A stretch of 22,591 nt of DNA, from the IMG/VR virus record IMGVR_UViG_3300019378_001956. One strand, 5' to 3'. Source of the stretch: a virus. Below are positions 1,324 through 10,649 of this stretch, piece by piece. Under the pieces are notes generated by a model, which was not told the origin of the DNA, ran no database searches, and saw only the letters and a list, made by a program, of their open reading frames with translations. The position numbers and the translations under genes are program-made. Numbering within the stretch: the first letter of the stretch is position 1; the number at the start of each line of letters is the position of its first letter.

Positions 1324-4300
1324 TTATGCACCTCCCATACGAGCTATACGTTTATCCCTTTTAATTAATGCATCAGCAATACGGTCAATCAATCTTTTAT
1401 CAGTGACTGATTCAGTTAATTCTTTGATTAATGCATCAGTATCAATATTTTCAACATTACCATCAACAGTAACATCCACTTTATGTTCTAATGTTAATTT
1501 AACCTCTTCAACATTACCCCTAGAATTATTATTGTCAAATAATCCTTCTAATGGATTGGAATGTGTACGTGGGGCAGATCTGCCTCCAGGAATATGAACA
1601 TTAATTGGACCTCCAGCAGATGGTGCCGGATGACTATAACTGCATGGACCAGCAGTCCAACCACCACGTTGCCTTAAAGCAGTTGTATCGAAAGTATAAC
1701 CATTAATAATAGCAGCACAATGACCAAAACCACCCCAATTCAAACCGCAATCAACATAACCACCATAACCACAGGTATTTGCAAGAGCCACCATTGCAGA
1801 AGCACCATCATAACAATTCCATGAACCCGCAGCAATAGCATTTTGCCAAGAGCCATGAGCATCACTATTGTAGTACAATTCATAAGGTATTGCACTAGCA
1901 ATTGCCGTAGCAATCCTAACAAAGGATTCCCAACTGATATGAGGTGTTCCACCTTCAAAGTCTTTAACACGGAAAGATAAACCAGTGTCAATATCACCAA
2001 CACCAGTATGTACTGCCGGCCCTTTCATTTGCCATTCACGAGCAGTCTGTTTAATATAAGCAATGTTTGGATCTGCAACAGCATCCCATCCACCAGCAAA
2101 ACAATTAGGACAGGCACCACGTTGAATCAAATCAATAAGATTTAAATTATCAGATGCAGTTTTATCCATATACTCCAAGGTTACAGGACTAACCAATCCA
2201 TTATCCATCGCTTTAACCGCAGTAATAGTGTAAGGCAATTGATTATCACGTCTTAAACTATTAGCCACACCACGAGTGATACGAGTCATAACCGCAGGGT
2301 CACGACCAACACGCCTTATAGTGGAAGGTGATCCAGTAGAATCACCACCAGCCCACTGTGATGGATTCTGCAATTTCCTGTAAAAAGTACCAATCGTAGA
2401 GGATAACTGGTCAAAGTAAGCAGTAGCTTCATTTTTAATCCTTGCAGCAGCACTTATTATACTGTCTGCCATTACCGCCCATGCAGACCTCATCTCTGAA
2501 GTGACTTTCATTGTTTCATTCAACATTAAAGCTAATTGCTGACGAGTAGTATTAGTAGCACTAGTCATAGCAGTCCTATGAGTTAATAACATAAGATTTA
2601 ACTGAGTACGTAGATTATTACTCATAGACAACAAATTCAAGTTCAAACCAGTACTAATATTCTGGAAAGTAGTTAAATCATTAGACTGAATTTGACCATA
2701 AGCAAGTTGATCCTGTAAAACCATATTCTGCAAAGTAGTCATCATCATTGTTGCTAATGCATCATAAGATTCACCAATCATAACATTAGTATCATCAGTC
2801 ATACCCATTGCAGAATCCAAACCACCAGACACACTAGATAAATCCATACTGGCTAAATCAACATTTTCTAACGGATTTTCATCCAAATCATAATAAGGCA
2901 TTAAATCATCAGTATCCAATGATAATTTCGGTTCACCAAATTTATCAACTATCTCTGCACCAACTTGCCTTGCATACTCACCAGCCGGCTTAATAGCATC
3001 CTTAATCTTTTGAACAGCATTTTTAAATTCATCAGTGATACTATTTTGAACAATACCTGGTGAATGTATACCCATAGCATTAAGTACACCATTAATAATT
3101 TCTTTACCAAAGTTTAATGCAGCAGCTATAGCCTGAGGTATAGCTTCACGAATACGATCAGGAACCTTAGTAAACTCAGTATAAATTTTACCAGGTAATT
3201 GTTGTACAGTAGTTGAAGCACTGTTAACCATTTCACCAGCTTTTTGCCTAGCAGTATTAACCCATTGACTACCAGCATTAATAATATTACAAGTAGTTTG
3301 AGCCAAATAACTAAAGAATCTACCAGGTAAACCACTAATATAATTAATAATACCATTAACAAAACCTGAAGCAGCATTAATTGCTGCACTTACAATTTGA
3401 CCTGCCCATTGGAAGACAAAATTAATAATCATTGTTAAAATTGTCATGTATGCAGTCATGATTAAATTCCAGATCATAGTCAACATTTGAGGTAAAGTAA
3501 TTTGACCACTAAGGAATGCCTGGAAAATATTAATAAGCTGAGATACTGCATTCCAGATTACCAATAAAATATTACTGAGTAAATTCCATGCCGGCATAAA
3601 CATTTCAACAAGATAAGTTACTATCTCCACGAAAATATCAATTAAAGGCCTAATAGCTTCCACAATAGGTGAAATAATACCACTTACAAAGCCGGCTATT
3701 GCATTGAATACTTCCTGGAACACTTCCCAAGTTTTCCTTAATGCTGGAACAATACCCGGACTACAACCCAAAAGAATACAAATGATTTTTCGTAATACAT
3801 CTACAACAAACATTACAGGATTAGTAACATAACCCAAGAATGATAAAAATGTATTAAATGCTCCTTGAACACCAGAAATAGCCCTAACAATAAACGCTAT
3901 TGTATCTCCTAATGCACCAAATGCGTCAATAATCATCCGGACAATATCAATCTTTGTTCCAGGAGGGAATAATTCTGTCCAAACTTGTTTAGCCCAATCA
4001 TACACGGGTTGTAATGCAGTACAAATATCATCCCAAGCCTGTTTTAAGTCCTTAAGGAAACCTTGAACATTAGGATTATTGATAAATGCAGCCCACAACC
4101 TTTTTACACCATCTGCAATGGCTTCAAACATTGTTCCAACATCTTTCCACCATCCAAAAGCAATACCTAACTCATAAACAGCAATAGCAATAGCTGCAAT
4201 AACTGCAACGATTGCCCACAATGGGGCTCCGGCTAAAGTAACACCACCAATTGCAGCAGCGGCTCCCCAAAGACTAGTGATAAATCCAGGCATAGCACTT

Positions 4301-5712
4301 ACAACCAATCCCCAGATTGTAGTTTCAGCAGCAGCCGCAGCACCAGCAAGTAATAGAATACCGAAAGCAACACCACCAATGAGTAAAGCACCTTGAGCCC
4401 AGCCATTATTCTGAATCCATTTTACCAAGTTAGTAAAACCATCAACTAAACCAATGATTAAAGGAGTAATAGGTACAAGTACACTTGCAATTAATTGACT
4501 TCCTGTAACAGTTAAAGCTGCCCATGCATCATCTAATGTAACAATTTCACTAGCCGTTTGAGTGAAACCCATATCATCTAAGGTTTTATTCATTGCTTGG
4601 AGTAATGATGTTTTATTATTTATATCTCCATCCCAGCCATTTTTCATGAGCATATCTTGAGAAATACCTAATTCCTGCAATCTACGGAATTGACCATCCA
4701 TTGCATCAGATACTGCAAGAATCGCATCTTCTTGAGTACGTCCTTCTTTGACGAAAGCAGATGACATTACAGCAGTTGTTTTAGTTAATTGCTCCATAGA
4801 TTGTTGAGGCAATTGTAATTTTACGCCCATTTCCAATGCCGATGCTGCTACAGCATTCATGTCAACTTTACGGAATTCATTTTGCATCTCCCGGACATGA
4901 CCTGTGAATTCTTGTAATCTTGGACCAGACATTCCTTCTAATCTTTGAGCAAATCTTTCAAAACTTGCTGTTGCATTGATGGATGCTCTTGCACCTTGAA
5001 CCATACTATTTACCAGGTCAAAACCTATCATTCCTACAGTCATACTTGCTGCAGATCGGAGGAATCCGAAACTGTTTCCTAGTTTTTTAGTACTATCTTC
5101 AGTTCCTTTAAAACTATTTTGAGTATTCCTTCCTGCATCCCCTGCAAGTAATAGTTTTTCTCTTAGTTGATCTGCATCCCTTGCTGCATCATCCAAACCA
5201 TTATTGGCTAGACTATCAAGAATCATTTTTAGTTCTTGACCTATACCTATTAAGATTACGATTATTGCTCTTAGCATTTCTGCGGTGGATACTGTTTGAT
5301 TCATTCCTGTACTTCCACCTATCGAGTCTAATGCATTGTCTAGTTGGTTTGCACTTCCTTTTGTTGCGTTAAGTGTAGTATCTAATAATTTGACATTACT
5401 TTCTACTTGATTAAAATTTGAGCCTGAGATTCTTTTCATTGAATTATTTAATACGTTTACATTACCTGCTATTAGTAATAGTCTTGATTGTAATTGTAAT
5501 GATTCTTGACTTACTTGTCTGAAGGGTAATGCATTTATTTTTGATAGATTTGTGCTTAATCTGTTTGCACCATTACTTGCAGTGTTGAAGTTGTTATTTA
5601 ATCCTAGAGCTAAATTTTTTACATTGGATAGTTGTGCTTCTACTTTTTCTATTATTGCAGTTGCACGGTCTTCTGCTCTTATGATAATGTCAATTTGTTG
5701 TTGAGATACCAT
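1324..5712 (-). CDS. Tape measure protein with C-terminal transglutaminase-like cysteine peptidase domain
   Basis: 1462 aa after the tail chaperones; N-terminal IDIIIRAEDRAT motif, Ala/Gly-rich helical core, hydrophobic segment and Trp/Phe-spaced amphipathic repeats; C-terminal NCYDGA...GHC...FDT (C1300, H1331, D1342); GGAGGT RBS upstream. Confidence 0.92.
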   Translation of the reverse strand: MVSQQQIDIIIRAEDRATAIIEKVEAQLSNVKNLALGLNNNFNTASNGANRLSTNLSKINALPFRQVSQESLQLQSRLLLIAGNVNVLNNSMKRISGSNFNQVESNVKLLDTTLNATKGSANQLDNALDSIGGSTGMNQTVSTAEMLRAIIVILIGIGQELKMILDSLANNGLDDAARDADQLREKLLLAGDAGRNTQNSFKGTEDSTKKLGNSFGFLRSAASMTVGMIGFDLVNSMVQGARASINATASFERFAQRLEGMSGPRLQEFTGHVREMQNEFRKVDMNAVAASALEMGVKLQLPQQSMEQLTKTTAVMSSAFVKEGRTQEDAILAVSDAMDGQFRRLQELGISQDMLMKNGWDGDINNKTSLLQAMNKTLDDMGFTQTASEIVTLDDAWAALTVTGSQLIASVLVPITPLIIGLVDGFTNLVKWIQNNGWAQGALLIGGVAFGILLLAGAAAAAETTIWGLVVSAMPGFITSLWGAAAAIGGVTLAGAPLWAIVAVIAAIAIAVYELGIAFGWWKDVGTMFEAIADGVKRLWAAFINNPNVQGFLKDLKQAWDDICTALQPVYDWAKQVWTELFPPGTKIDIVRMIIDAFGALGDTIAFIVRAISGVQGAFNTFLSFLGYVTNPVMFVVDVLRKIICILLGCSPGIVPALRKTWEVFQEVFNAIAGFVSGIISPIVEAIRPLIDIFVEIVTYLVEMFMPAWNLLSNILLVIWNAVSQLINIFQAFLSGQITLPQMLTMIWNLIMTAYMTILTMIINFVFQWAGQIVSAAINAASGFVNGIINYISGLPGRFFSYLAQTTCNIINAGSQWVNTARQKAGEMVNSASTTVQQLPGKIYTEFTKVPDRIREAIPQAIAAALNFGKEIINGVLNAMGIHSPGIVQNSITDEFKNAVQKIKDAIKPAGEYARQVGAEIVDKFGEPKLSLDTDDLMPYYDLDENPLENVDLASMDLSSVSGGLDSAMGMTDDTNVMIGESYDALATMMMTTLQNMVLQDQLAYGQIQSNDLTTFQNISTGLNLNLLSMSNNLRTQLNLMLLTHRTAMTSATNTTRQQLALMLNETMKVTSEMRSAWAVMADSIISAAARIKNEATAYFDQLSSTIGTFYRKLQNPSQWAGGDSTGSPSTIRRVGRDPAVMTRITRGVANSLRRDNQLPYTITAVKAMDNGLVSPVTLEYMDKTASDNLNLIDLIQRGACPNCFAGGWDAVADPNIAYIKQTAREWQMKGPAVHTGVGDIDTGLSFRVKDFEGGTPHISWESFVRIATAIASAIPYELYYNSDAHGSWQNAIAAGSWNCYDGASAMVALANTCGYGGYVDCGLNWGGFGHCAAIINGYTFDTTALRQRGGWTAGPCSYSHPAPSAGGPINVHIPGGRSAPRTHSNPLEGLFDNNNSRGNVEEVKLTLEHKVDVTVDGNVENIDTDALIKELTESVTDKRLIDRIADALIKRDKRIARMGGA

Positions 5713-5775: not shown

Positions 5776-5970
5776 TTATTTTTTCTTTGGTACTTTATTC
5801 ATCTCTTTATGTAGGTCTGCTCGACCTTTTGTGATAAATAATGTTTGAGCTAAGGTTAAATCGCCCAAGTTATCACATAAATGATATCCGCAGTAATCTA
5901 ACCATATTATATTTTTAGCTTCATTCGTCTTCAGGAAAGTCTTTAACTTCTTTTTCCAAGTCATCATCAT
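5776..5970 (-). CDS. Tail assembly chaperone extension (gpT-like), probably made by +1 frameshift from the upstream chaperone
   Basis: Overlaps the chaperone 3' end by 50 nt, lies directly upstream of TMP, is in the +1 frame and has no clear RBS. Confidence 0.7.
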   Translation of the reverse strand: MMMTWKKKLKTFLKTNEAKNIIWLDYCGYHLCDNLGDLTLAQTLFITKGRADLHKEMNKVPKKK

Positions 5971-6370
5971 CTAAACCAGATATAATTCTGACTTGATCAT
6001 AAATTTCATCAAAAACACGCCTGCCCATAGCCTCTACTTCATCACGAGTAAATGGATCATCTTTATAAACATCATTATCCAGACTTAAAAATACTGCCTC
6101 AATTTTAGCTTTAGCAGAAGCTTTTCCAGTTTCTTTTACATTGATTTTTGCTTGAGCTTCCATTTGAGATTGAATTTGTTTTCTTCTACTTCTATTTTTT
6201 GCTCTTTCAGTAGTGGTGTATTCCCCAATAGCTTCATTTTCTATTTCTTCTATTTTGTTCCATTCACCATTACTCAAAGGTCTTAAGGCGACAGTATCGT
6301 CTTTTGATTTGATATATCTTTCTTTAGTTTCATTTATTCCATTTAATATTTGGGATTTAGTTAACACCAT
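5921..6370 (-). CDS. Tail assembly chaperone (gpG-like)
   Basis: 149 aa, acidic and helical, between major tail protein and TMP; GGAGGT RBS upstream. Confidence 0.8.
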   Translation of the reverse strand: MVLTKSQILNGINETKERYIKSKDDTVALRPLSNGEWNKIEEIENEAIGEYTTTERAKNRSRRKQIQSQMEAQAKINVKETGKASAKAKIEAVFLSLDNDVYKDDPFTRDEVEAMGRRVFDEIYDQVRIISGLDDDDLEKEVKDFPEDE

Positions 6371-6436: not shown

Positions 6437-6685
6437 CTATTGAGGTTCTAAAGTAATTTCTAATGTTTCAGTACTAGAAGTGATTATTACCTCTTGACTG
6501 TAAGTTACGTAACCTGTTTTTGTTGCAGTTACAGTAACTGTACCTACAGGAACATCATGTAATGTACATCCACCTTGACTACCAGTAGTGCCTGTAATTT
6601 GGCCTATTGCAACTTCAACTTGACTTACAGGGTTTGTTCCATCAGTTACGCTTACTGCTAAATCATCAATAGTTTCAGGATTCAC
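6437..6685 (-). CDS. Ig-like (PEGA/carboxypeptidase-regulatory-like) domain; probable +1 frameshift extension of the major tail protein
   Basis: 82 aa, VSVTDGTNPV...TGTTGSQGGCTL.DVPVG...VTATKTGYVTY pattern; GTG start one nt after the MTP stop; the +1 frame is open from 5 codons earlier (CTC CCA GTA ACT GAG GTG). Confidence 0.75.
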   Translation of the reverse strand: MNPETIDDLAVSVTDGTNPVSQVEVAIGQITGTTGSQGGCTLHDVPVGTVTVTATKTGYVTYSQEVIITSSTETLEITLEPQ

Positions 6686-6686
6686 C

Positions 6687-7721
6687 TCAGTTACTGGGAG
6701 CTATCTTAGGCTGGTTATTGACTAATTTTACATACATATCTGTAGTAACTTCTGTAGTATTATCTGCGAGCCTAACTTTTTCAGAACCAAGTGTGGCCAT
6801 GTTTAAGGTTGCTTCTACATCATCAATACCGGATGAATCAAATTCTGCTAACAATGTACATTTAGGGAATTTAATAGTTAAACCCAAACCAGGGTATTCA
6901 CATAATTCCACATTAAGTTCTAATGGAACTTGCAATATTTTACATTTAGCAGGCTCAAGAAGATCTACATCACCATACCGTGCATCTAATATTGCTCTTA
7001 CAGTTTCTTGAGTTAATGTAGTTACAATACTGATGCTGTTTTCTCTTTTATTTGCTTTAGCTTGTCCTTGAGGATGTCTATAACCAAAACCAATTGTTTT
7101 ATCGACATCATGATTGTTATTTCCTTCAAGAGTGAAACTTGTTTGTACACCGGCAGGATCATTACCATTCAATTTTAAGCTAACATCATAGAACATGATG
7201 AATAAATCATTTATTAACTCTTCAGCTCTTTCATATTCATTTTCATCTTCTAGAATATCAGCAAGTTCAGTTTTATAGATGAAATCTGCTCCAAGAGTCA
7301 TATCTTCAGAGGATACTTCGAGTTTCATTGAATCAACAAGTAATCCAAATAGATAGAAAACTAATTCATCATTGACTGATACTCCTCTGAAACTTTTTAA
7401 TAATTTAGATTCTCCACCCCAAAATTCATGAGTATTTTTATTATTATTTCCGGCTGTGAATTTATAGTTATCTAAGAATCCATAGAAGTAATGTCCAAGT
7501 ATTTGAAGGTTTGCTGAAGTTTCAATACTTCCACTAGGTTTTATTACGCCTGCTCTTGCTTTTTGATTCATTCTTGAACCGAAACTTTTGGTTACTGGTT
7601 CGTCATTGAGTTTAAAATCCATGCTGTCTACTTCATGGTCAAAATCTAAGTCAAACTCTGCTTTTTCTTTATCCTCCCCATAGACGGCTTCGGGTTCCAA
7701 ACCAAATACTCTACAACTCAT
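6687..7721 (-). CDS. Major tail (tube) protein
   Basis: 344 aa, acidic and beta-rich, FGLEPEAVYGE N-terminal motif typical of tail tube proteins; located between the tail terminator and chaperones; GGTGA RBS. Confidence 0.8.
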   Translation of the reverse strand: MSCRVFGLEPEAVYGEDKEKAEFDLDFDHEVDSMDFKLNDEPVTKSFGSRMNQKARAGVIKPSGSIETSANLQILGHYFYGFLDNYKFTAGNNNKNTHEFWGGESKLLKSFRGVSVNDELVFYLFGLLVDSMKLEVSSEDMTLGADFIYKTELADILEDENEYERAEELINDLFIMFYDVSLKLNGNDPAGVQTSFTLEGNNNHDVDKTIGFGYRHPQGQAKANKRENSISIVTTLTQETVRAILDARYGDVDLLEPAKCKILQVPLELNVELCEYPGLGLTIKFPKCTLLAEFDSSGIDDVEATLNMATLGSEKVRLADNTTEVTTDMYVKLVNNQPKIAPSN

Positions 7722-7723
7722 TT

Positions 7724-8257
7724 TTAATCACCATCATTATCATTATTATCATTATTATTTTCAATTTTTCGTTTACAACAATTCATCCAATCAATATAAT
7801 ACTTAGCAATGATTCTTACACTAGTAGCAGGGGCTTTATCAGATTTATTTCTTATAGATACTTCGCCTACAGGATATAATGTTTCAAACTCAATTTTACT
7901 TATAATCCTGTCACTATTAAGTTTAATGTGATTTTTAGCTATACTTGCTGCTACTCTACTAGCAAGATTTTTTCCTTTCATTTCAGATTCTTCAATATCA
8001 TCTTCATCATATACTACACAAACAAATTCATATGGTGTTTGTAAGTATAATTTTTGTGATAATGCACCTGATTTTTCATTAGCAATGGTTGTTGGATGTT
8101 CAAATAACCAGATTAAAGGTTCTTCCATTTCTTCTTCCATTCGGTAAGATGGAATGAATGTTTCAACATCAGATAATAAACCTTCAGGAGTCATTTCTGA
8201 TGTGATGCATTCTTTTATCCTTGTGGTTATTAATTCTTGACTACTTATAATATTCAT
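7724..8257 (-). CDS. Tail terminator/completion protein
   Basis: 177 aa; position between the gp10-like gene and the major tail protein; acidic. Confidence 0.6.
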   Translation of the reverse strand: MNIISSQELITTRIKECITSEMTPEGLLSDVETFIPSYRMEEEMEEPLIWLFEHPTTIANEKSGALSQKLYLQTPYEFVCVVYDEDDIEESEMKGKNLASRVAASIAKNHIKLNSDRIISKIEFETLYPVGEVSIRNKSDKAPATSVRIIAKYYIDWMNCCKRKIENNNDNNDNDGD

Positions 8258-8682
8258 TTCAATGTACCTCTGCTTGCAATTACTACTGCACTATCCACAG
8301 AACGTATTACCTCAGCCATACTGCGTTCAACAAAATGTTTTGGTTTTTGACCTTTCACGGATTTAAGGAACCATTCGTTGCCTCTCCAATAAAAATGTAA
8401 TGCTTTCGCATGTTTTGGAGTTATACGATGATGGAGTGGACCATATATTCCAGTTCCATCATTAACCCAGGGTAAGTAATAAGTGTCATTCCTTATTTCC
8501 CTTGTATTTAATGATTTAATTACATGATAATTTCTTGATCCATAACCTGATTTTTTGGGAGTGTTTTTTTCAAATAATGTTTTAGTGTTATGTGCTAATT
8601 GGTCTAAAAGTTTAGTTTTGAATTCACCAACACTTTCACTTAAAACTTTTTTTGTTATTTTTACATCGATTATGAGTTTCAT
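8254..8682 (-). CDS. HK97 gp10-like neck/tail-completion protein
   Basis: 142 aa basic; TPKKSG, YLPWVNDGTGIYGP, ITPKHAKALHF and VKGQKPKHFVERS motifs typical of the gp10-like family. Confidence 0.8.
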   Translation of the reverse strand: MKLIIDVKITKKVLSESVGEFKTKLLDQLAHNTKTLFEKNTPKKSGYGSRNYHVIKSLNTREIRNDTYYLPWVNDGTGIYGPLHHRITPKHAKALHFYWRGNEWFLKSVKGQKPKHFVERSMAEVIRSVDSAVVIASRGTLK

Positions 8683-8683
8683 A

Positions 8684-9085
8684 TTAAATCTTGAATATAT
8701 TTGCTTTACGAGGTTTGCGGAATGGTTTTAAATCTTGTTTTAAATCATCTGTAAAAACAGCACTTGTGATTACGCCAGTATTCCAATCATCCACTTTTTT
8801 TAATGGGTTGTCTCTACGTCCGAATGAAAATGCTATAATATTTGCTGTTAACCTAATACAAACATTACGTACTGCAGGAGGTACTTTTACAATGATTTCT
8901 TCACCATATTCATCGTAATAGTTATACCACTCTCTTTTACAGTAATGGTTAATATGGGATTCACTTTGAAGAATCCAATCTTCAATTAGTTCATTGAATT
9001 CTTCTGTGTCATCTCCAGTATAACCAAATTGTTTAGGTTTTGTTCTTGTTAATTTAAGTACATCTTCAACTGTGCAGTAAGACAA
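8684..9085 (-). CDS. Head-tail connector/adaptor protein
   Basis: 133 aa, TTG start with GGTGA RBS; MSYCTVEDV N-terminus, ESHINHYCKR and VPPAVRNVCIRL motifs typical of gp6/gp15-like adaptors. Confidence 0.85.
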   Translation of the reverse strand: MSYCTVEDVLKLTRTKPKQFGYTGDDTEEFNELIEDWILQSESHINHYCKREWYNYYDEYGEEIIVKVPPAVRNVCIRLTANIIAFSFGRRDNPLKKVDDWNTGVITSAVFTDDLKQDLKPFRKPRKANIFKI

Positions 9086-9099
9086 GATTTATCACCTTT

Positions 9100-9651
9100 T
9101 TATTCGTTTGTGATAGATACATAAATTCCTGCTGAAGTTGTGCCTGCATCAGTATATAACGGGTAGATTGTACCGTTTGTTTGAGCATCACTTGTAATAT
9201 AGAATTTTTGACCTACAAATGATTCTTCAGGACTATTGGTTAATACTTCAACTTCAGTATAACCACCAGATACTACTCCAGTAGTTTTTACTGTTCCACT
9301 ACCCCATTCAGTTTCTCCTTGAGCATCACCATAACTAGTGAATGCATAATTTACTGTTTGTGGTGTAGGATTTGATTCTTCAAGTACAATGCTTAATGAA
9401 CTTGTTTCACTATTTACAGTTAAAGTACTTTCATAGTCAACATAACCAGATTTAGATGCTACAACTTCATATTGTCCTTCAGGAACATTGCTTATTGTGC
9501 ATCCTCCAGCACTACCTGTTTTTCCAGTGTACTCATTCTCACCATCAGATAATGTTACATCAACATTTCCTATTGGATCTGTTCCATCTGTAACACTTAC
9601 ACTAATGTTATGAGTAGTGGCAGGTGTTGGTGATGGAGGGATTAAGCTTCC
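9100..9651 (-). CDS. Start-codon-less 183-codon ORF: Pro-rich linker + Ig-like domain + second beta-rich domain; probable -1 frameshift extension of the major capsid protein (absent from ORF track)
   Basis: Manually translated GSLIPPSPTPATTHNISVSVTDGTDPIGNV...GIYVSITNE*; frame open 9696-9100 with no in-frame ATG/GTG/TTG; overlaps the MCP stop in the -1 frame; exactly fills the gap to the next gene's RBS. Confidence 0.85.
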   Translation of the reverse strand, partial: GSLIPPSPTPATTHNISVSVTDGTDPIGNVDVTLSDGENEYTGKTGSAGGCTISNVPEGQYEVVASKSGYVDYESTLTVNSETSSLSIVLEESNPTPQTVNYAFTSYGDAQGETEWGSGTVKTTGVVSGGYTEVEVLTNSPEESFVGQKFYITSDAQTNGTIYPLYTDAGTTSAGIYVSITNE

Positions 9652-10649
9652 TTTAACCAGGCTAAACCAATTGCATCTTCTTCTACAAATTGTACATCAG
9701 CATACATAGTAGAAGCAATATCCCATACATTAGCTCTTAAGTTAAAAGCAGATTCAACGATAATTCCTTCAGGGTCAGTTAACCATTGAATATTCTCTTT
9801 ATGAGTTAAAATTACTGGTTTTTTAGTGAAACCATTCATAGGATTACTGAAACTAGGAACTGCGAATAAATGCATATCTTCAATTACAGGTTCACCAGTA
9901 CTGGAAATATAAGCATTCATATCTAATTTATCATGATTCCATGCAATGTATCTGTAAGCAGCAGTAACAAGTTTGGATGGGGCAAACATTGCCAATCCCC
10001 CATCATTTTTATAAACATCAGGGAACTCATCCAAGAAATGATATATTTCTTGTATTGGATTGGAATCATCGGCAGTTAAATCAATTTCTTCATTGTTTAA
10101 ATCAGCATCAGATGATGCTTTTTTAAGAATACCATCAACAACTTTATAACCAGTAGAAACATCAGATTCAGAACTGGATTTATCTCCATAAACAAGAACT
10201 CTTTCTAATGCTCTACCATTTGCTTGAGCAAACATTTCAGTTAAAGTATTCATGAATTTTTGACCTTCAATACTGTCTTTCATTACAGTACGATGAACAC
10301 CAGTTAATGCACGGAGTTCTTCAGCATCAAAACTCCTGTCAGTGAAATTAGGTTCTTGAGAATCAGATAATACTTGAGGAGTACCTGAGATTCTACCTGC
10401 TTCTAATTCAACGTTAAAACGGATTTTATCTACTTGTCTTTTATGATTAGTTGAAGTAATTCTTTTAGTTTTTTCAAGAAATACTGCATTGTCTTCTAAG
10501 TGTCTTATGTAAGTGTCAGATTTTTCTGCTTGTAAAACACCATTATTTAATTTACCTTCACCTTGGCCGATATCAACAAATTTGATTACAAATTTTTCTC
10601 CAAGGTCTACTTTTTGTTTGATTTCATTTTCTACTATCTGAATTGACAT
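9642..10649 (-). CDS. Major capsid protein (HK97 fold, PBSX XkdG-like)
   Basis: 335 aa after protease/scaffold; GVLQAEKSDTYI, KDSIEGQKF and ALERVLVYGD motifs resemble XkdG-type capsid proteins; GGTGA RBS. Confidence 0.9.
   Translation of the reverse strand: MSIQIVENEIKQKVDLGEKFVIKFVDIGQGEGKLNNGVLQAEKSDTYIRHLEDNAVFLEKTKRITSTNHKRQVDKIRFNVELEAGRISGTPQVLSDSQEPNFTDRSFDAEELRALTGVHRTVMKDSIEGQKFMNTLTEMFAQANGRALERVLVYGDKSSSESDVSTGYKVVDGILKKASSDADLNNEEIDLTADDSNPIQEIYHFLDEFPDVYKNDGGLAMFAPSKLVTAAYRYIAWNHDKLDMNAYISSTGEPVIEDMHLFAVPSFSNPMNGFTKKPVILTHKENIQWLTDPEGIIVESAFNLRANVWDIASTMYADVQFVEEDAIGLAWLKEA

Follow-up and report, generated by a model that had tools for sequence, protein, structure and literature searches.

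Paralogous beta-sandwich domains probably added to capsid and tail tube proteins by ribosomal frameshifts in opposite directions in a putative MSTV1-like archaeal virus

Introduction

In the 22,591-nt stretch of DNA with the IMG/VR record IMGVR_UViG_3300019378_001956 (hereafter the window, to which all coordinates refer), the genes for the major capsid protein (MCP) and the tail tube protein are each overlapped at the 3′ end by a reading frame that encodes a further domain, in the −1 frame for the capsid gene and in the +1 frame for the tube gene. Whether and how these out-of-frame domains become part of the head and the tail is the question that this locus raises. The comparative analysis described below indicates that ribosomal slips in opposite directions probably add paralogous domains to part of the capsid (−1) and tube (+1) subunits.

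The stretch is best explained as part of an MSTV1-like tailed virus or provirus, namely its structural module; the host would be Methanobrevibacter, a gut and rumen methanogen. Of the annotated relatives, Methanobrevibacter gottschalkii virus vir075 (BK068243) and Methanobrevibacter smithii tailed virus 1 (MSTV1, PP537965) are nearest, and the closest proviral copies were found in Methanobrevibacter metagenome-assembled genomes from goat, roe deer, and rumen samples. Relatives were gathered in three collection scans that yielded more than 100 loci, and the C-terminus of the tube protein was classified at each of them.

Results and discussion

Capsid and tail tube genes are followed by related domains in opposite frames

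The features on which the analysis is based are as follows.

9642-10649, minus strand: MCP gene, HK97-like, zero frame, with TAA 9644-9642 as its stop; matches phrog_1623 (E 2e-50) and Pfam Phage_capsid
9100-9696, minus strand: −1 frame extension open reading frame (ORF), stop to stop, 198 codons, encoding a Pro/Thr linker, domain 1 (about 9376-9615), and domain 2 (9103-9372)
9648-9654, minus strand: candidate −1 slippery site A_AAG_GAA, two codons upstream of the MCP stop
6687-7721, minus strand: tail tube protein gene, zero frame, with TGA 6689-6687 as its stop; matches Pfam Phage_tube_2 and positions 1-342 of phrog_35581 (E 1.9e-107)
6437-6700, minus strand: +1 frame extension ORF, stop to stop, 87 codons, encoding a short linker and one CarboxypepD_reg-like domain
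6695-6698, minus strand: candidate +1 shift site CCC_A, where tRNA-Pro would re-pair from CCC to CCA, three codons before the tube stop

The head and tail extensions were aligned by BLASTP with 37 identities in 82 positions (45%, E 5e-21). A preliminary description of this region had proposed that the two extensions are paralogous and attached in the −1 frame at the capsid and in the +1 frame at the tail; the alignment bears out the former, with the shared motifs it quoted present in both copies, and the positions of the ORFs confirm the latter.

The capsid junction and its conservation

The MCP was 58.6% identical over 336 residues to that of MSTV1 (PP537965) and 62.7% identical to that of vir075 in tblastn comparisons. 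Its last 18 codons are overlapped by the −1 ORF, which contains no ATG, GTG, or TTG in 198 codons, against an expectation of about nine calculated from codon usage in adjacent genes (naive P about 8e-5). This absence of start codons could reflect selection against internal initiation in a frame that depends on frameshifting.

The junction, NTA AAG GAR NNN TAR, is kept in the window and eight distinct relatives with MCP identities of 55-87%, and in the window and all eight of these relatives the domain-bearing ORF lies in the −1 frame. L007, a relative without the capsid extension, also lacks the junction motif. The AAG of the candidate site is a rare Lys codon (25 of 202), and a weak hairpin alone was predicted downstream of the site (z −1.55).

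The extension frame is devoid of a start codon in the window, MSTV1, and L020. An ATG in the −1 frame was seen only where the Ala codon before TGG is GCA, which marks this ATG as incidental. Such an incidental ATG (GCA TGG) explains the separate small protein that is annotated in vir075 and in an NCBI Methanobrevibacter record.

Existing records treat the capsid extension in different ways. It is unannotated in the GenBank record of MSTV1 (L002, PP537965, 20433-20722), annotated as a separate hypothetical protein in vir075 (L001, BK068243, 18903-19190), and named "carboxypeptidase-like regulatory domain-containing protein" in NCBI Methanobrevibacter records (protein P0065). The public gene call of the −1 ORF of the window, P0001, runs upstream through an in-frame TGA read as W; it was set aside as an artefact of an alternative genetic code setting and does not provide evidence of a start codon.

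A −1 frameshift at A_AAG_GAA in the MCP gene of MSTV1-like viruses ("Usuviridae") was predicted earlier by Baquero et al. 2024 (PMC11375127), who also described one family member, vir272, with the capsid fusion in frame. The capsid site of the window is this already-published site of the MSTV1 family, and the capsid half of the present finding is known.

The tail tube junction and its conservation

The tube protein shared 50% identity with its annotated counterpart in vir075. Upstream, TAG 6703-6701 bounds the +1 frame, which is open from 6700 to 6440; it therefore shares with the tube gene only the final four sense codons (GCT CCC AGT AAC, then TGA). In this short overlap, the CCC of the candidate site is overlapped by a Pro codon (CCA) of the +1 frame. 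CCC is rare among the Pro codons of the structural genes of the window (7 of 115, 6%), and CCA accounts for 38 of 115.

The same +1 layout was found in eight further distinct sequences, namely L042, L003/L004, L045, L046, L043, L038/L044, L047, and L049, with tube identities of 77-88%. These are independent assemblies from goat, roe-deer, and rumen samples. CCC was invariant in all nine distinct sequences with the +1 layout, and the relative L006, which carries the domain in frame, has CCT at this place. All the +1 junctions read CCC NNN NNN T GAGGWGAATCCTGAAA; the tube gene itself ends with CCC TAA in L043 and with CCC TGA in L046, which are the classic +1 frameshift sites of SPP1 gp17.1* and of the Listeria phage tsh genes.

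Compared with L003 and L038, the extension had a dN/dS of 0.10-0.30 at a dS of 0.3-0.76, similar to that of the tube gene. The tail domain evolves under purifying selection in the +1 frame.

Among the relatives, the tube proteins of L006, vir075, and L039/L040 carry a prealbumin-like domain as an in-frame fusion, and so does the phrog_35581 profile. No extension domain was detectable at the tube C-terminus in three relatives at 73-77% identity and in the whole group at about 55% identity. In the literature search, no published account of a +1 shift in a tail tube gene of an archaeal virus was found, and such a shift is absent from Baquero et al. 2024.

Proposed mechanism

The conserved junctions are consistent with the following course of translation. 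On the capsid mRNA, most ribosomes would stop at TAA 9644-9642, and a fraction would slip back one base on A_AAG, with tRNA-Lys moving from AAG to AAA, and continue in the −1 frame. The resulting long capsid protein would have the junction ...WLK|GSLIPP..., followed by the Pro/Thr linker and by two beta domains, a transthyretin-like beta-sandwich and a further, small one. On the tube mRNA, most ribosomes would stop at TGA 6689-6687, and a fraction would slip forward one base on the rare CCC, from CCC to CCA, giving a long tube protein with the junction ...KIAP|VTEVNPE... and one paralogous beta-sandwich. This predicted tube fusion of about 427 residues would be colinear with the in-frame proteins of vir075 (443 residues) and L006 (447 residues). 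The long and short forms would co-assemble, and a share of the head and tail subunits would show the domains on the outside. The slippage itself, its efficiency, and the incorporation of the long forms into virions are inferred. As claimed in the preliminary description, both domains appear to be joined to their carriers by recoding, most likely by frameshifting on the comparative evidence.

Several observations weigh against this mechanism. At the capsid site, A_AAG_GAA departs from the canonical X_XXY_YYZ heptamer, and the published prediction for the capsid shift (PMC11375127) was made by bioinformatics alone. At the tail site, the codon after CCC in the window is AGT, which is the commonest Ser codon (89 of 209) and no obvious slow A-site codon; CCC is thus followed directly by neither a stop nor a slow codon in the window (CCC AGT AAC TGA), in contrast to L043 and L046. 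RNAalifold found no conserved downstream helix among the nine tail junctions (−3.2 kcal/mol), and the 101 nt past CCC in the window folded worse than shuffled sequences (z +1.26). Finally, a GTG stands one base past the tube stop (TGA in the window) in eight of the nine sequences with the +1 layout.

This GTG, at 6685-6683 in the window, is the sole candidate start for the tail extension, and it also speaks for the alternative that survives best. The tail domain would then be a separate protein of 82 residues made from GTG 6685 by termination-reinitiation and not joined to the tube protein, and the capsid extension would still arise by −1 frameshifting. Coupled reinitiation occurs in archaea, and gene callers predict such free proteins, among them P0010, which starts with the GTG-encoded residue. 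However, no Shine-Dalgarno motif is found upstream of GTG 6685, whereas nine of ten neighbouring gene starts have a GGAGGT- or GGTGAT-type motif 5-9 nt upstream. In L046 the GTG is replaced by GAG, and in L043 the tube stop lies 6 nt further upstream. A free domain would furthermore be without an anchor, whereas relatives fuse the domain covalently to the tube C-terminus, and separate translation leaves the invariance of CCC, with CCT in the in-frame relative, unexplained. We regard a free tail protein as rather unlikely, and the +1 slip of tRNA-Pro from CCC to CCA as the most likely route to the tail extension.

It is highly improbable that one or both of the frame breaks are accidental, whether through faulty assembly or through an indel that recently inactivated a decaying provirus, with the domains no longer expressed. 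A single-base indel could turn an in-frame tube fusion such as those of L006 and vir075 into the +1 layout, and vir272 shows that the capsid fusion can also exist in frame. The frame relations, however, recur across many independent assemblies with synonymous sites near saturation (dS 0.3-1.0), and the extensions remain open and under purifying selection (dN/dS 0.10-0.30). An unselected open frame of 87 or 198 codons would be unlikely to last at a G+C content of 32-35%; across the region of the finding, G+C was 31-35%. Conservation essentially refutes an accidental origin.

The least probable source of the long forms is slippage during transcription or editing of the RNA, generic ways to two products for which nothing specific speaks. 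Polymerase slippage, where known, requires a run of at least about six bases, and the longest homopolymers at the junctions are of three (AAA 9654-9652 and CCC 6698-6696).

A conserved Shine-Dalgarno-like block downstream of the tail site

Past the candidate +1 site, the sequences with the +1 layout share a short block.

6673-6689, minus strand: conserved 17-nt block TGAGGTGAATCCTGAAA, Shine-Dalgarno-like, which begins at the tube stop, 7 nt after CCC

In the nine diverged sequences, 16 of the 17 columns of the block are invariant, synonymous positions included. No other 17-nt window in about 870 aligned nt per sequence is as conserved, and the longest stretch of invariant positions (11 nt) also lies within the block; a second 17-nt window scored 15 of 17, and the excess conservation of the block is accordingly modest. 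No RNA structure was predicted at the block. We take it to be complementary to the 3′ end of archaeal 16S rRNA (GAGGTGA, then TCC). A role as Shine-Dalgarno sequence for a downstream start was ruled out, because there is no conserved in-frame ATG, GTG, or TTG within 30 nt.

That the block represents a new kind of unstructured 3′ stimulator of archaeal +1 frameshifting, acting for example by pairing with rRNA, is a speculative idea that we consider improbable. If it were true, one Methanobrevibacter virus module would give three mechanistically distinct recoding signals (CCC, TTT_C, and A_AAG) and would make frameshifting in both directions, +1 and −1, accessible to experiment in archaea for the first time.

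A third candidate site in the chaperone pair

The second of these signals, TTT_C, lies in the chaperone genes downstream of the tube gene.

5776-6370, minus strand: tail assembly chaperone pair, with the G part at 5921-6370 and the T part at 5776-5970 in the +1 frame; phrog_344
5935-5938, minus strand: candidate slip site TTT_C within the G/T overlap 5921-5970

The T part lies in the +1 frame, and not in the usual −1 frame, in all 34 distinct junction sequences, including that of the window. Of the 34 junctions, 31 preserve TTT CCT GAA unchanged, and three differ from it by one or two substitutions. The +1 frame of some relatives is open only from two codons upstream of the TTT motif. The comparison supports a conserved +1 slip on TTT_C in the chaperone pair. 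A +1 chaperone shift was predicted earlier for the haloarchaeal virus HSTV-2. The preliminary description had counted the chaperone shift as a third recoding event, in agreement with the +1 frame at all 34 junctions, and it is plausible that three recoding sites lie within about 4 kb, with −1 at A_AAG, +1 at CCC_N, and +1 at TTT_C.

All the genes of the region are encoded on the minus strand, in the order prohead protease, scaffold, MCP (9642-10649), three neck genes, tail tube (6687-7721), chaperone pair (5776-6370), and tape measure (1324-5712). No virus-encoded tRNAs are present within the window.

Predicted fold of the extension domains

The capsid copy of the shared domain matched Pfam CarboxypepD_reg PF13620 with 41.3 bits (threshold 32.3 bits). 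The tail copy fell slightly short of this threshold at 31.2 bits; 48.2 bits were reached by its homologue in L046. An AlphaFold2 model of the capsid extension built with 84 homologues had a pLDDT of 95. By Foldseek, domain 1 matched the transthyretin-like domains of carboxypeptidases D, N, and M, CnaB, and the N-terminal extension (NTE) of SusC, and in a viral structure library it was 39% identical to a siphovirus "Carboxypeptidase regulatory-like domain protein". By these fold matches, domain 1 is a prealbumin-like or transthyretin-like beta-sandwich, for which the name "Ig-like" would apply in a loose sense only. Among the Pfam matches of the extensions there was no Big_2, I-set, or classical FN3 (PF00041); the sole row with an fn3 name was fn3_3 (PF14686), which was sub-threshold. 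Other weak Pfam matches were to PEGA, SpaA/prealbumin, and Ig_DR_A0283-like families. The "Ig-like" module of the preliminary description is thus upheld as a beta-sandwich, but not as a member of the Big_2, I-set, or classical FN3 families, its predicted fold being transthyretin-like.

Domain 2 of the capsid extension (9103-9372), which was missing from the preliminary description, comprises about 90 residues, is unrelated to domain 1, and was modelled as all-beta with a pLDDT of 92. It had no Pfam match and no Foldseek match with E <0.2, and its best VIA Z score of 5.2 is in the noise range. This lack of matches does not argue for a new fold. In relatives, domain 2 recurs as a mobile module, sometimes as tandem pairs on small N-terminally anchored proteins (P0005 and P0006) or on tail extensions (P0010).

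Head and tail copies belong to different clades of a shuffled module

In a tree of 31 domain copies, the capsid copy of the window clustered with the capsid copies of L046 and vir075. The tail copy of the window clustered with the other +1 tube copies and with the copy on a small separate protein of L005 and L041. Recent intragenomic duplication was rejected, as the head and tail copies fall into different clades. The term "duplicated" of the preliminary description, if read as a recent copy within the genome, does not hold, and the tree indicates that the two copies of the window are ancient paralogues within a family of modules that has been shuffled widely.

In relatives with another type of MCP, both modules are borne by small proteins that have a conserved basic N-terminal segment and are encoded between the MCP-like and tube genes.

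Small separate module proteins: L003 2171-2584; L042 2671-3084; L045 2390-3040; L005 2194-2580; L006 2121-2534; L010 1917-2513

The small module protein is possibly a decoration protein, which would constitute a third route of attachment. Together with the placement of the copies in the tree, these small anchor proteins mark the domains as exchangeable display modules, some of which were inserted in the frame of their carrier, some in another frame, and some on anchor proteins of their own.

As for what the displayed domains might do, the preliminary description had envisaged a coordinated, sub-stoichiometric display with binding of glycans, pseudomurein, or mucus. By analogy with the Ig-like domains of phages, the domains may have a role in adhesion, binding weakly to the host wall or to gut glycans, and the coordinated, sub-stoichiometric nature of the display is conceivable on the same grounds. 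The search against adhesin-like proteins of methanogens that the preliminary description had suggested gave a weak negative: a word-index search for longer proteins returned no close relatives among the large host adhesin-like proteins and only six small viral-type matches (174-206 aa).

Comparison with known systems and implications

The closest counterpart of the capsid junction is the MCP shift of MSTV1-like viruses (PMC11375127), which shares with the window a homologous MCP, A_AAG_GAA just before the stop, and a −1 extension with a homologous beta-sandwich. The window differs from these viruses in that its extension adds a second orphan domain, and from MSTV1 itself in that the tube C-terminal domain of MSTV1 is in frame.

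The tail junction resembles that of the Bacillus phage SPP1, in which gp17.1 and gp17.1* are produced at a measured ratio of 3:1 by a +1 frameshift at CCC_UAA (PMC6316719, PMC8718954). In both cases the tube gene has a rare CCC at its end, and a +1 slip there lengthens the protein, or in the window would lengthen it, by about 87 residues folded into a single beta-sandwich on the outside of the tube; L043 has the identical CCC_TAA. The added domain is FN3 in SPP1, whereas it is transthyretin-like/CarboxypepD_reg in the window, and the shift is experimentally proven in SPP1 and predicted in the window.

Mobile Ig-like modules on phage head and tail proteins, attached in frame or via −1 or +1 shifts and seemingly by the chance of insertion, were described by Fraser et al. 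2006/2007, as cited in PMC5009743. The modules of the window family are similarly found on the MCP (−1), on the tube protein (in frame or +1), and as part of small anchor proteins encoded separately, but their fold class is prealbumin-like or transthyretin-like and not Big_2, I-set, or FN3.

If the mechanism proposed here is correct, gut methanogen viruses decorate the head and the tail with one family of exchangeable beta-sandwich modules. Such decoration would bear on the persistence of archaeal viruses and on how they find their hosts in the gut and rumen, and current annotations would overlook the frameshift products. Archaeal programmed frameshifting has been documented mostly by prediction, as in the G-T chaperones of haloarchaeal viruses and in Mg-chelatase genes (PMC5009743). 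The preliminary description presented the locus as a possible model for archaeal ribosomal frameshifting. Its novelty in this respect was overstated, since the capsid shift (PMC11375127) and the −1/+1 layout (PMC5009743) are known; nonetheless, the three sites, together with relatives that serve as natural controls (in-frame fusions, CCC-stop variants, and variants without an extension), make a convenient comparative and experimental system.

The layout as a whole has its counterpart in the Listeria phages. A118 and A500 combine a −1 shift in the capsid gene with a +1 shift at CCC_UGA in the tail gene (tsh), and both shifts are +1 in PSA (Atkins et al. 2016, PMC5009743). As would be the case in the window, these phages produce short and C-terminally extended capsid and tail proteins. 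A118 and A500 also share with the window the direction of the shifts, −1 for the capsid and +1 for the tail, the use of a rare CCC for the latter, and a host of low G+C content, CCC making up 5% of the Pro codons there and 6% here. In the cps gene of PSA, the shift occurs on CCC before a sense codon (CCC_UCC), as would be the case in the window. The differences are that the host of the Listeria phages is bacterial and not archaeal, that their tail CCC stands directly before the stop, whereas that of the window lies three codons before it (with CCC-stop in L043 and L046), and that no downstream pseudoknot was predicted in the window. Because A118 and A500 already pair a −1 capsid shift with a +1 tail shift, the window is of a known layout type and is new in being an archaeal instance of it.

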